From: Eledone cirrhosa
Lineage: Eukaryota
Assembly: GCA_964016885.1 (NCBI GenBank)
Contig: OZ024747.1
Location: 83,886,001-83,950,000 of the forward strand
Direction: 5' to 3'
Length of the DNA: 64,000 nt
Part shown: piece by piece, positions 9,246-34,659 of the stretch
Layout: the number at the start of each line of letters is the position of its first letter
Position numbering within the stretch: position 1 is the first letter of the stretch
Position numbers and translations under genes: made by a program
The notes under the pieces: generated by a model
Told to the model about the DNA's origin: nothing
The model's input: only the letters and a program-made list of their open reading frames with translations
Databases searched by the model: none

Positions 9246-9698
9246 ATGTATATATATACATATATATATACACACACACACTCACACATATATATATATA
9301 TATATATATATAAACGTGTATGCATGAGATTATGTCTGTCTGTATAAATATGAGTGTGTTTTGTGTGATCATATACCCCCCCCCCCCTTCACCACCAACA
9401 ACACGTCACTCTTCTCCGCTCTTTAACTCCGTCCATCTTTCATGTTAGGATCAAAGAGAACCTTTGAGATGTTTGTCTCAAACAGACACTTTTTGTCAGA
9501 CAAACACTTATGTGCATGTATGCGTAATATATACTATCACACTTATATATGAATGTTATAATCTCTCTGTGTATATATATATATATATATATATATATAT
9601 ATATATATATATACGTTATTCTGGGTTGAATTGGAGGTAACCACAATAAGTAAGGTACTCAATACATTGCAGAGTATGAAAGTTTTAATATAGATGAA

Positions 9699-9745
9699 AT
9701 TCTACAGGACTAGAACTGTTTCATTCTTTAGAAATCATCAGGAAT
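9699..9745 (-). ncRNA. type I hammerhead ribozyme (family B)
   Basis: ATTC-CTGATGA-tttctaaagaat-GAAA-CAG ttctagtc CTG-TA-GAAT; all three stems pair. Confidence 0.85.
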
Positions 9746-9753
9746 CTGATGAG

Positions 9754-9800
9754 ATTCCTGATGATTTCTAAAGAATGAAACAGTTCTAGTCCTGTAGAAT
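9754..9800 (+). ncRNA. type I hammerhead ribozyme (family B, inverted twin)
   Basis: Exact reverse complement of 9699-9745; predicted cleavage 9796|9797. Confidence 0.85.
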
Positions 9801-9904
9801 TTCATCTCTCTCTCTCTCTCTCTCTCTCTCTCTCTCTCTCTCTCTCTCTCTCTCTCTATATATATATATATATATATATATATATATATATATATATATA
9901 TAAA

Positions 9905-10115
9905 ACATGAGAAGAAAGAAGAATACTGCGTGGTTGCACATAGGTTACATATGATAAAAATAGTCCTTCGTCAGTGATTTTCCAACCATCATTGGTATTT
10001 CATCGCATTAAAAATCAGATACCTCAGGTTGGTGCGAGCAATAACTAAAAAAAGTTATTGGGACCAGTAAATCGCGTAAAGCGAGGGAGACAAGTGAACA
10101 ACATAGAAGGATAAA
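9905..10115 (-). mobile_element. short interspersed element, homologous to 17907-18452 and 54925-55087
   Basis: Shared 'gctcgcaccaacc...gaaatacc..tgatggttggaa.atcactgaYgaaggac' block. Confidence 0.7.
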
Positions 10116-10229
10116 AGAGAGAGAGAGAGAGAGAGAGAGAGAGAGAGAGAGAGAGAGAGAGAGAGAGAGAGAGAGAGAGAGAGAGATGGATATGTGTGTG
10201 TGTGTGTGTATGCTCCTGTAACTCCCGAT

Positions 10230-10470
10230 AAAGTCGTAGGGGCGCCGTATTGAAATACGGCGTTTCTTGGGCATTTTAAAGCCTGAGTACAGCAGATTTC
10301 TTCCAGAGAGAGAGGAAGAATTGACCTCAGTACTAAACTGGTACTTTTTTAAAGACCTTGAAAGGATGAAAGGCAAAGTTGACCTCGGCAGGAAGTCAGA
10401 GAGCAGAGAGCCGGAACGAATACCATTAAACATTCTATCCGACATTCTAACGACTCTGCCAATTCACTGC
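10230..10470 (-). mobile_element. tRNA-derived SINE with long tail
   Basis: Family core plus 'gtcgtaggggcgc' tail shared with 21645-21957 and 61795-62090. Confidence 0.7.
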
Positions 10471-10494
10471 TATTATATATACTAGCATATAAAG

Positions 10495-31207: not shown

Positions 31208-31675
31208 TTCCTATTTTTCAAGGCAATGCAAACAACAACTACTTAATTAAATAGTTATTACTTTAGTTACTTCTATCAAAAAATCCCAAAAATGATGTTA
31301 ATGAAAACTATAGGTGAAAGTGAAGCTATTCTTTTGTGACCTCTTAGTTACTTGTACCAATTTTGAATTTAATTCAAGCTACAGTGTCAGCCTGTGCATT
31401 GGAGTCACAGAAATAAGTTGAGATATTTTATCTAATTGGTACAAGCATCCACTCCACATGGCGGGGACATAGGTCAGATCGTGGAGCACTCACCTATCTT
31501 AAAAATATTAACTTATGATAAATAAGAGTCATTTAAGAAAATACAATTTTTTTAAATTAGTAGGTGAGCATTAACAACTGAATCTAAATGGAGCAAATTT
31601 GCACCATTTGCATTTAGTTGAAAATAACATTTTAATTAAACATGACAAATTCTAATGCAATAGAAGGCAAATATC

Positions 31676-31940
31676 AATTTTCACATGCAAATTTTTTGGG
31701 GATTTTTTTCACGCGCGCCATTTTTGGTCGATTTTTTGTCAATTTTTCACATGCAAATTTTTTTGGGTTTTTTTGATTTTTTTTCACGCGCGCCATTTTT
31801 GTCGATTTTTTGTCAATTTTTCACATGATAATTTTTTTTTGGATTTTTGGATTTTCTTCACGCACGCCATTTTTGTCGATTTTTTGTCAATTTTTCACAT
31901 GATAATTTTTTTTGGATTTTTGTATTTTCTTCACGCGCTT
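31676..31940. repeat. about 65-75-bp tandem repeat
   Basis: Recurring aatttttcacatg...cacgcgcgccatttttgtcgattttttgtc, about 4 copies. Confidence 0.85.
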
Positions 31941-32520
31941 TTTGGTATGCATTATTCATATGTTTTGCTTGTTCTGATTGTCTTTTTTCTTTTATTTCAG
32001 CAGCTTTCCGTTTTTTATACTCCCTATTCCTAATGGCATTTTTTCTCCGTTTTTCATTCTCTTTATGAATTTTTTGATCTTTGGGACATTCGGAAGCACT
32101 ATCAGTCTCATTGAATTCAAATTCAGGTCCAGGATTTAATTCAACACAACCGATAATAAGCAATGATAAGATCAGTGCACGTGTTCTATATTTCTGATTG
32201 GAAATCGGGTAAATTCGTTTATTGGATTTGTAAAAAGCCGCCTGAATGTGAATTTCATCATTCGAATTGCCCGATTGTGGAATTGTTTCATTCGAAATGG
32301 AAATATTGCATTTTCGCGCCAGGCAAAAAAGTAATAAGCCGATCAAAAAGCCGCGAAACGTATATGGTGACTTTTTTCGAAAGCCGCGAAACGTATGAAG
32401 TGACCTTTTGCGATTTTTTTTGCGACCATTTTGGCGAGACTTTTGCAGGGAAACAAATTTTTCATTTGTAATAGTCAAAATAAATAAGCCGATAAAAAAG
32501 CCGAGAGACGTCATTTTCAT
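31858..32520 (-). pseudogene. degenerate transposon-like ORF with 2A-like motif and K/E/R-rich region
   Basis: RALILSLLIIGCVELNPGP (GCVELNPGP at 32125-32151), followed by charged helical sequence running into tandem repeats. Confidence 0.5.
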
Positions 32521-32844
32521 ATGTCAAATGAGCACACTATTCGCACCTATCGCAAATGAGTTCACTACTCGCACCTATCGGTACAAAAAATAGCACAACT
32601 ATTCACAACTATTAGTACAAATCCAAATGATTTTCTGAATTTCTAGTATATCAATCAGCGACTGCTTTGAAAGAGAACAATGCAGTGAGTGATTACTCAT
32701 TTGAATATAAATAGAAGACAACCTCAACTAGTTTGCAACGTGTGACCACTTATCGCGAGATAGGAGAACATAATAGCTCCTAATTAGCTCAATGATTAAT
32801 GTTTACTGCCACATTGTATCAACATTTAAAATTCAAATTCAAAA

Positions 32845-33400
32845 AAATAACCGCAGTCACTGGGGGGGGGGTTCAAATAACCACCGCACCCCGAATAACC
32901 GCAGTCACTAGGGGGGGTTCGAATAAGACCCTCACCCCAAATAACAGCAGTCACTGGGGGAGGGTTCGAATAAGCGCCTCACCCCGAATAATCGCAGTCA
33001 CTGTGGGGAGGGGTTCGAATAAGCGCCGCACCCCGAATAACCGCAGTCACTGTGGGGGGGGGGTTCGAATAAGCGCCTCACCCCGAATAATCGCAGTCAC
33101 TGGGGGAGGGTTCGAATAAGCGCCGCACCCCGAATAACCGCAGTCACTGGGGGGAGGGTTCGAATAAGCGCCGCACCCCGAATAATCGCAGTCACTGGGG
33201 GGAGGGTTCGAATAAGCGCCGCACCCCGAATAACCGCAGTCACTGGGGGGAGGGTTCGAATCAGCGCCGCACCCCGAATAATCGCAGTCACTGGGGGGAG
33301 GGTTCGAATAAGCGGGGGGGGGGGGGTTCGAATAAGCGTCTCACCCCGAATAATCGCAGTCACTGGGGGAGGGTTCGAATAAGCGCCGCACCCCGAATAA
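32845..33400. repeat. 39-bp minisatellite
   Basis: gaataagcgccgcaccccgaataaYcgcagtcactggggggagggttc-like units, more than 10 copies (period read by eye as roughly 46-49 bp including the G run). Confidence 0.85.
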
Positions 33401-33402
33401 CC

Positions 33403-34178
33403 CCTTATCCTCCTCTGACCGGTCCCAAGAGATGCATCAAATGCACAGAGCGTCACCCTTACTCACTCACTTACTCACTTGAACACAGTTTTTTTCAGCA
33501 AACTTTGATCATAACTTTTTTTGTGCTGAACGAAATTTCGAGATTTTTAGCTTAAGAGATGTGCAATGATTTACTCTCCATGCTCATATAACTTTCATGT
33601 GATTTTGATAATCGGAAGACATTCTAATAATGCTGTAAAGAGACGATTGCCAACGAAATCACTAAGACAACAATATTACTAAACCGACTACCGTCGGTTT
33701 AGGATATATGTATATGTATGTATGTATGTGTATATATATATATATGTATGTATGTATGTATATATATATATATATATGTATGTATGTATGTATGTATATA
33801 TGTATGTATATATGTATGTATGTATATATATGTATGTATGTATTATATATATATGTATGTATGTATGTATGTATATATATATGTATGTATAACAGAGCGT
33901 CACCCTTACTCACTCACTTACTCACTTGAACACAGTTTTTTTCAGCAAACTTTGATCATAACTTTTTTTGTGCTGAACGAAATTTCGAGATTTTTAGCTT
34001 AAGAGATGTGCAATGATTTACTCTCCATGCTCATATAACTTTCATGTGATTTTGATAATCGGAAGACATTCTAATAATGCTGTAAAGAGACGATTGCCAA
34101 CGAAATCACTAAGACAACAATATTACTAAACCGACTACCGTCGGTTTAGGATAAACCGACTACCGTCGGTTTAGGATA
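33403..34178 (+). mobile_element. tandemly duplicated HINE/DINE-like (Helentron-type) non-autonomous element
   Basis: 33445-33705 repeated at 33892-34153; ends ttatcct...aggata; terminal palindrome taaaccgac-tacc-gtcggttta present three times; internal (ACTC)n. Confidence 0.5.
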
Positions 34179-34659
34179 TATATATATATATTTACAGAAT
34201 TAACCGTCGAAACGGCTTGAGCTCAGCCGTCGGGGTCTTACTTGTTCCTATTACCCACTCTACTACCCTAAGTATTGAGTACTTTGGTGCGTATGGTTCA
34301 CCTGGTTCCTTACCACATTTCCTTCGTTATATATATATATATATATATATATATATATATATATATATATATATATATATATATATATAGAGAGAGAGAG
34401 AGAGAGAGAGAGAGAGAGAGAGAGAGAGAGAGAGAGGGCGAGCCTGGGGAGTGCACAAATCACGGGGTTCATACCCCATTCTCTCTCTCTCTATATATAT
34501 ATATGTATTTATATGTATATATATATATGTATATATATATGTATATATATATTATATATATATGTAAACACATATATACATATATATATATATACACATA
34601 TACATATATATATATATATATAATATAAGATCAAAAGATGGTTAAAGGAGTTCCATGTA

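Follow-up and report, generated by a model that had tools for sequence, protein, structure and literature searches.

Hammerhead-bearing elements and their shared 11-mer

The window analysed here, 64,000 nt of the Eledone cirrhosa genome (assembly GCA_964016885.1, contig OZ024747.1, positions 83,886,001 to 83,950,000), contains a number of retroelement insertions that carry hammerhead ribozyme motifs and abut (TA)n microsatellites. Among them are a Penelope-like element (PLE) with a long reading frame, referred to hereafter as PLE1, and copies of families A, B, C, D, and P2 (Table 1). Three of these insertions share an exact 11-mer, GTATTGAGTAC, at 9655-9665(-) in family B, 11386-11396(-) in family C, and 34272-34282(+) in family A. 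We conclude that this 11-mer supplies the 3' strand of a bulged hairpin predicted in the RNA, with the general form RCUC-NNN-loop-N'N'N'-UN-GAGY.

The 11-mer had been reported at these three places in an initial annotation, and chance cannot account for it, as three matches stand against a mean of 0.06 in shuffled sequence and none of 100 shuffles reached three. With two mismatches allowed, the window gives 14 matches, below the shuffle value of 36.5, so relatives of the motif cannot be recovered by loose sequence matching. Recounted on the sequence, the motif lies 37, 51, and 40 nt downstream of the predicted cleavage site and about 41, 43, and 45 nt upstream of the start of the (TA)n run at 9655, 11386, and 34272, respectively, and the spacing proposed earlier holds for the three exact copies. 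At 11386, however, sequence foreign to the element forms part of the 43 nt; other family C copies terminate about 25 nt past the motif. The PLE1 relative near 24030 has the same hairpin, but stands 130 nt from the junction rather than 40–46 nt.

Across the 3.0-Gb genome, GTATTGAGTAC has 94,661 exact matches, compared to 1,015 for the reversed pattern. Of 47,047 forward-strand motifs, 38,396 (82%) have the (TA)4 sequence TATATATA starting 25–55 nt downstream, whereas among 47,614 reverse-strand motifs just 3,055 (6%) have it at that distance upstream, the strand counted being the one with one listed match per motif. Positional enrichment is thus present genome-wide. Nor do the three focal elements align as one family, since blastn at word size 7 could align them only over 11–14 nt around the motif. 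The suggestion that the hammerheads are unrelated did not stand: families A and B both appear to be PLEs of the Hydra clade, with reverse transcriptase (RT) cores 49–52% identical to each other and 40–44% identical to that of PLE1, and the exact 11-mer therefore partly reflects shared ancestry.

Families A, B, and C can be assigned to separate families, and A and B can be tied to predicted Hydra-clade open reading frames (ORFs). The family A copy at 34272 represents the 3' end of an element whose frame is 790 aa long (locus L193), and family B (9655; B and B2 counted as one) runs into a related ORF in 9 of its 12 read-through copies. No ORF was found in 4 read-through candidates or 2 longer copies of family C, which may be non-autonomous. 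The RT tree, unrooted and built without published Hydra proteins or an outgroup, places families A and B together (support 94/86).

The Hydra clade of PLEs with a C-terminal endonuclease (EN+) was described by Craig et al. 2021 (PMC8557442). In our protein alignment, the RW[KR] column is conserved, with RWR in PLE1 and family A (in Hydra elements RWK replaces GxKF/Y), and DKT stands in place of DKG in PLE1, family A, and the relatives shown. A CxCX5C linker precedes the C-terminal GIY-YIG endonuclease in PLE1 and the family A copy L194, its third C being altered in family A copies L193 and L195. As in Hydra elements, CxxC and CxH surround the conserved endonuclease E and N, the hammerhead lies in the pseudo-long terminal repeat (pLTR), and insertion is into (TA)n; the CCHH motif is absent from the endonuclease, in an alignment read by eye. 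Membership of the Nematis or Neptune clade was rejected, given a linker of CxCX5C rather than CX2-5CxxC and no CCHH. A Pfam search of the window proteins returned no domain, no relative was found in viral contigs, and the named protein matches to PLE1 include an octopod. According to the text of PMC8557442, the clade has the same protein motifs, pLTR hammerhead, (TA)n targets, inverted arms, and one-ended tail, but its units are "generally <3 kb" with a tail of 30–40 nt, whereas PLE1 is about 4.2 kb long and the tails here are about 55–165 nt.

Several side observations concern these families. PLE1 is very young, judging by its 131 scored matches, all 99–100% identical, many of which retain the entire 832-aa frame. 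The PLE1 hammerhead core has CCGAAGA instead of CTGANGA, and head-to-tail PLE1 pairs lie 4,199–4,200 bp apart, i.e. one unit (C23:27751569/27755768; C3:133891213/133895413). Family A and L124 have the U3-A8 variant of the hammerhead core, with a long stem II loop in A (L018:1370-1460, L124, L194), and a strict hammerhead pattern misses most of the variants in these elements. Short family B derivatives (L201, L202, L206) form units of a few hundred nt in which hairpin 2 (see below) or the first codons are rejoined to the hammerhead. Hydra-type PLE ORFs also occur in 23 loci (L289–L311) of bacterial genome assemblies, mostly from host-associated samples, which are most likely contamination from the animal host.

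A covarying hairpin and its doubling

In the hairpin, ACTC pairs with GAGT and TAC or TGC with GTA, leaving TT as a bulge on the 3' side. In 24 of the first 30 genomic matches of the 11-mer, from three different families, ACTCT(A/G)C stands 3–8 nt upstream of the motif, and the two-part pattern has 76,028 genomic occurrences compared to 9 for the control. The family C hairpin has a C-G pair closing a UUCG loop. A structural scan of the window gave 10 matches, each with a different upper stem among the listed motif copies, relatives, and family copies. These include the motifs at 9665 and 34272, two further family copies, and all three of the "looser relatives" reported after other hammerheads, which prove to be compensatory variants of this hairpin; a single mismatch keeps the 11386 copy out of the strict scan.

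In an even 600-kb sample of the genome, the same fold is found ahead of (TA)n in many families, 24–130 nt from the junction. Clustering of 1,780 junction windows (1.2 Mb), performed blind to the hairpin, gave 58 clusters, 9 of them with the hairpin. Two hammerhead-bearing clusters have none (0 of 17 and 0 of 20 members), one of them being the family of the window hammerhead at 23252(+), where no such hairpin motif was seen. This last family (23050–23440 (+) in the window; loci L333 and L335) is a non-coding unit of ~390 nt that has a hammerhead but lacks the hairpin. Its 5' end is fixed, and it often occurs as repeats separated by (TA)n; it is retrozyme-like and probably served by another PLE clade.

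Among 37 hairpins, Watson-Crick pairing occurs at upper pairs 1, 2, and 3 in 36, 31, and 30 cases, compared to shuffled means of 18.1, 11.7, and 10.8, and none of 20,000 shuffles matched the observed pairing, in a test anchored on the lower stem only and with the relatedness of families left uncorrected. Compensatory base changes are present across families, on the same uncorrected basis, and the lower stem itself occurs as ACTC/GAGT, GCTC/GAGC, and GCAC/GTGC. Loop lengths range from 3 to 34 nt; the 5' strands, with their variable loops, could not be aligned by MAFFT, and pairs were counted by script rather than through a covariance model. A hairpin inside the 11-mer (GTA-TTGAG-TAC) was also considered: it fits the minimum-energy fold of family A, but is contradicted by the covariation across families. 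Rfam gave only sub-threshold matches, nearly all of miRNA type, among the 150 of 196 window rows listed and in 12 loci.

Could the 11-mer simply be left over from a common ancestor, without selection for any function? Families A and B do group in the RT tree and share the ACTC/GAGT lower stem. However, the flanks are no longer alignable, the structure is kept by compensatory changes across elements whose RTs are only 37–45% identical to that of family A, and copy ends track the hairpins. We regard this explanation as extremely improbable, strongly disfavoured as it is by the covariation.

The hairpin is carried twice. Full-length copies have the order hammerhead, hairpin 1, spacer, hairpin 2, ATG, and in copies that continue into the ORF (family A, PLE1, L124/L164, L137), hairpin 2 lies a few nt past the usual end, followed by the ATG. 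Its typical form is GCTC-C...G-TN-GAGC. We further examined distant relatives at 100 loci taken from collections of metagenomes and genomes, where 60 ORF starts with at least 170 nt upstream were collapsed to 44 non-redundant families. Within these 170 nt, 26 families have two hairpins, 13 have one, and 5 have none (at least one in 39), while no control gave two hairpins, whether shuffles (880), windows inside ORFs (156), or mirrored scans (44). In these outside relatives, the spacer between hairpins is 36–59 nt long (median 42), the end of hairpin 2 is 15–51 nt from the ORF start, and in some cases (L212, L227) (TA)n runs lie between the hairpins. Inspection of published Hydra consensus sequences by eye revealed a clear hairpin in three of six: both hairpins in Hydra-1_Ajap and one each in Hydra-2_Amil and Hydra-2_Ajap. 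Hydra-1_Crog has imperfect variants, Hydra-1_Amil stops before the hairpin, and Hydra-1_Obim allows no clear call.

Copy ends and two-armed insertions

There are two sites at which arms of these elements terminate; each lies immediately 5' of one of the hairpins (1 or 2), about 2–12 nt ahead of it, at TAT/TATA microhomology with the (TA)n target. The ends of PLE1 are exact, 5 nt ahead of hairpin 2 and 3 nt ahead of hairpin 1, with TAT/TATA running into the target. In the six families with a usable reference, no sampled arm extends beyond the first 1–2 bases of hairpin 2, ORF read-through excepted (rows of L091, whose reference is TA-rich, were left out), and in 20 PLE1 loci hairpin 2 was seen solely upstream of ORFs. 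The distance from hairpin 1 to the end ranges from 24 to 130 nt between families, and that from the end to the next hairpin is short throughout. Because the former varies fivefold while ends stay near the next hairpin, each end appears to be set by the hairpin lying 3' of it. By its position, the segment comprising hairpin 1 and the spacer corresponds to the known one-sided "tail" of Penelope elements, here about 55–165 nt.

For 14 of 20 PLE1 insertions retrieved, the two outer ends were captured within 10 kb, and every one of these showed mixed ends, with one arm at each site. The same was true for 57 of 59 two-armed insertions of families A, B, P2, D, and E, with no case of two tails; 9 of the 59 came from motif-picked loci and were incapable of being doubly tail-less. 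Only arms ending at the microsatellite, without a long (TA)n between them, were counted, on references trimmed of (TA)n. Pooled, there is one arm per site in 71 of 73 two-armed insertions, whereas independent choice of ends would predict about half of them to be mixed. Short copies of family C show the same two end classes by eye, and five insertions in the window obey the one-of-each rule (9614–9807, PLE1, two of P2, and the 57-kb element).

This regularity bears on the suggestion that the hairpins serve expression, as promoter, splice signal, or translational control, with ends simply following nearby TA-rich patches. Such a role would suit the pLTR/5'UTR position, where the promoter and intron of D. 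virilis Penelope lie according to the text of PMC8557442, as well as the fixed distance of 15–51 nt between hairpin 2 and the ORF start and the TAT microhomology at both end sites. At the same time, three covarying pairs are not predicted by a DNA promoter or splice site, and one end per hairpin in 71 of 73 insertions would go unexplained. We therefore consider this reading very unlikely, although translational control may be a second role of the same putative binding site.

In L312, L317, L321, and the PLE1 of the window, the tail-less arm holds the whole ORF and the tailed arm holds the 3'UTR or ORF end plus the tail, the continuity of the tailed arm being absent from the other arm. As neither arm holds the sequence of the other, the two would be separate reverse transcripts of one event. 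In family A, arms of one insertion differ at a median of 1 in 40 nt, versus 5 between insertions (17 of 18 insertions scored, ungapped). It might instead be supposed that a single reverse transcript serves as its own template after folding back, with synthesis started by one hairpin and the return strand stopped by the other. Short insertions are indeed near-perfect palindromes centred in the hammerhead stems 50–80 nt before hairpin 1, subfamily variants are common to both arms, and self-priming has been proposed (text of PMC3846280). This is nevertheless quite unlikely, being contradicted by the four insertions above, whose arms hold different sequence, and by the tail, which is on the long arm in some PLE1 insertions and on the short arm in others.

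In families A and B (e.g. 9741–9760), the inversion centres of short palindromes cluster in the hammerhead core or stem II, about 25–55 nt upstream of the predicted cleavage site and not at the site itself. Among the arm 5' ends examined, there was no peak at this site.

Table 1. Hairpins, hammerheads, and associated features of the window
Feature	Positions	Strand	Remarks
Two-armed family B insertion	9614..9807	.	Minus arm: hammerhead (core starts 9741), hairpin 1, spacer, then (TA)n; plus arm stops about 16 nt ahead of hairpin 1
Hairpin 1, family B	9657..9675	-	ACTC-TGC-aat-GTA-tt-GAGT; holds first 9 nt of the 11-mer at 9655-9665
Hairpin 1, family C	11388..11407	-	One upper-stem mismatch here; other copies TAC-ttcg-GTA
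Type I hammerhead core, family C	11448..11485	-	Predicted GUA cleavage
Hairpin 1, PLE1	24031..24064	-	GCTC-TGT-18 nt loop-ACA-tt-GAGC, compensatory variant; in tail-bearing left arm
PLE1 reading frame, 832 aa stop to stop	25549..28047	+	RT and C-terminal GIY-YIG-type endonuclease, Hydra-clade motifs
Hairpin 2, PLE1	25551..25567	+	GCTC-C-atatc-G-tt-GAGC; 5 nt past tail-end site, ATG ~20 nt on
Hammerhead (29495-29533) and tail-less right end of PLE1	29495..29580	+	Ends just before hairpin 1
3' half of family A hammerhead	34204..34231	+	GAAA, stem III, predicted GUC cleavage; 5'-truncated copy, first core strand missing
Hairpin 1, family A	34257..34280	+	ACTC-TAC-8 nt loop-GTA-tt-GAGT
Hairpin 1, family P2	38274..38298	+	ACTC-CAG-9 nt loop-CTG-ta-GAGT; opposite arm terminates at 34620, 4 nt ahead of hairpin 1
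Hairpin 1, short two-armed P2 insertion (55718-55885)	55775..55799	-	One tailed end, one tail-less
Hairpin 1 with 34-nt loop	57303..57352	+	ACTC-TGT-loop-ACA-tc-GAGT; inverted arm ends before hairpin near 56985
Hairpin 1, family D	58709..58728	+	ACTC-CAA-atat-TTG-tt-GAGT; overlooked in the initial annotation

Elsewhere in the window there is a 55-bp satellite of about 280 copies with 96% matches (39457–54700) and a telomere-like repeat of about 66 degenerate CCTAAC copies in an internal position (1737–2131). A 221-aa frame at 31858–32523 (-), with no Pfam match, contains ELNPGP, which we take to resemble the 2A-like ribosome-skipping motif of some retroelements.

A proposed model of paired initiation and its implications

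The two hairpins, their covariation, the end positions, and the different site used by each arm can all be read directly from the sequence. We suggest that the hairpin, carried twice between the hammerhead and the start codon, likely serves each time as a docking point for the RT-endonuclease, fixing the start of copying a few bases 5' of itself. Both the binding and the start-site control are predictions drawn from the genomic end positions. The element protein would nick both strands of (TA)n; one 3' end would prime at the hairpin 2 site, copying the spacer and hairpin 1 as the tail, and the other would prime at the hairpin 1 site, giving rise to the tail-less arm. Both reverse transcripts would then run 5'-ward, halt at variable points, and be joined head to head. 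Less firmly, the protein may act as a dimer whose subunits each take one hairpin of a single RNA, and the template may be circular or tandem, with both hairpins following the 3'UTR.

Hairpin 2, never being present in a terminal arm, would most simply act in the template, and the strict one-of-each rule suggests simultaneous occupancy of two binding sites, as by a dimer bound to a single RNA. For a full-length tailed arm, the 3'UTR, the hammerhead, and both hairpins must follow one another in the template. As hairpin 2 stood only upstream of ORFs in the 20 PLE1 loci, this favours a hammerhead-processed circle (as proposed in the text of PMC4209133), although the two head-to-tail PLE1 pairs 4.2 kb apart could be a source of linear templates. 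Hammerhead self-cleavage is itself predicted from the sequence pattern. The "conserved cis signal" proposed in the initial annotation is therefore supported by the genome-wide position and the copy ends, but its unit is a covarying hairpin, present twice. Its first suggested role, that of an RT recognition/initiation element, is likewise supported by the positional enrichment and the fixed copy ends.

The main rival reading is that the hairpins act in DNA, extruded or in single-stranded cDNA, as sites of the GIY-YIG endonuclease, and that the ends are cut sites. The tail has been ascribed to endonuclease-mediated resolution (text of PMC8557442), the D. virilis tail is needed for endonuclease recognition of plasmid DNA (text of PMC11167929), (TA)n lies between the hairpins in L212 and L227, as if the site itself were a target, and covariation is compatible with any single strand. 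On the other hand, hairpin 2 is absent from tailed arms, which places the signal in the template, and it would need to be copied and then removed; loops of 3–34 nt speak against a duplex-DNA site, there is a slight excess of G-U over A-C on the sense strand, and internal initiation in vitro already accounts for the tail in a relative (text of PMC11167929). We consider a DNA-level nuclease signal unlikely, though more plausible than the other alternatives.

A number of observations weigh against RT docking at an RNA hairpin. In vitro, an element of another clade, PAc (see below), showed no start-site difference between strands (text of PMC11167929). The hairpins are not independent samples, given that the families are related and that hairpins 1 and 2 stand on one element. 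A crude control in the 600-kb sample, with CAC/GTG stems, gave 43 matches near TA versus 37 for the real stem, and did not separate the signal from the CA-repeat background. The G-U versus A-C excess expected for sense RNA is small (5 to 0 at pairs 2–3; 5 to 1 in a second count, and 4 to 4 at pair 4). Hairpin 2 of family B is only GCAC-5 nt-GTGC, with no upper pair; 5 of the 44 outside relatives have no hairpin and 13 only one within 170 nt, and 2 of the 59 insertions have two tail-less ends. Finally, isolated hairpins are weak (-3 to -10 kcal/mol), the minimum-energy fold of the window copies of families A and B favours another pairing, and the family C copy is mismatched. With local folds this weak and two of three focal copies pairing otherwise, a protein-stabilised fold is implied.

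In LINE-1 twin priming, each of the two nicked strands serves as a primer on the element RNA, and the resulting insertion is inverted and joined at microhomology. The second site is used opportunistically there and no overlap arises between the arms, whereas here the sites would be fixed by structure and the arms overlap almost fully. Small, often bulged RNA structures that recruit an RT and place initiation include hepadnavirus epsilon, the R2 3'UTR, the 3' stem-loops of LINEs and SINEs, and the template-boundary stems of telomerase RNA. The likeness is one of form, the Rfam comparison having given only chance matches of miRNA type, and the Hydra hairpin differs in being doubled, each copy apparently with its own start, as the genomic ends indicate.

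The closest experimental system is PAc, a Poseidon-clade element from Anolis carolinensis, which cuts and extends both target strands (Frangieh et al. 2024, PMC11167929). According to the text of that paper, PAc has two internal start sites flanking the tail, needs RNA 3' of the start, and is predicted to form a dimer. AT-rich targets, extension of both strands, and tail-flanking starts are as inferred here for Hydra elements, but the clade is different, the starts lie inside the ORF in an AC-rich stem-loop, and no repeated bulged hairpin is described in that text. Minimal hammerheads found in PLEs as well as in non-LTR retrozymes (PMC4209133, PMC7229834, bioRxiv 10.64898/2026.07.22.740005) are of type I with a short stem III, include the U3-A8 core variant that family A and L124 also have, and come with proposed circular templates; the texts describe the ribozyme only, the word "hairpin" occurring 0 times in those of PMC7229834 and the bioRxiv paper. 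It likewise occurs 0 times in the text of PMC8557442, and "hairpin" and "stem-loop" 0 times in the text of its supplement, figures lying outside the text search. The clade has thus been published already, as have the hammerheads, the tail, and internal initiation, while neither the doubled hairpin nor the one-end-per-hairpin rule was found described in the literature searched (text, not figures). We conclude that the hairpin is a real and apparently undescribed cis-acting structure of a known retroelement clade, with a strong genomic link to insertion ends and a predicted biochemical role.

RNA choice and the inverted arms with a one-sided tail were named as the next task for PLEs in the text of PMC8557442. 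A doubled covarying hairpin with single-base end rules makes this directly accessible to mutagenesis. The hairpin is also a marker of Hydra elements and their non-coding derivatives, with at least 76,000 genome copies for one variant, and could help direct RNA payloads into (TA)n sites. It may be, and we put this forward only tentatively, that twin priming is programmed here: an RT dimer would grip both hairpins of one hammerhead-processed circular RNA, with one start per nicked strand, and this alone would yield both the inverted arms and the one-sided tail. The hairpin would then amount to a 20-nt portable handle and might correspond to the TERT-binding stems of telomerase RNA. If true, such a handle would make any RNA a substrate for a telomerase-related RT. 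Penelope-like RTs are the sister group of telomerase, and an RNA handle of these enzymes would bear on the origin of telomerase RNA recognition.

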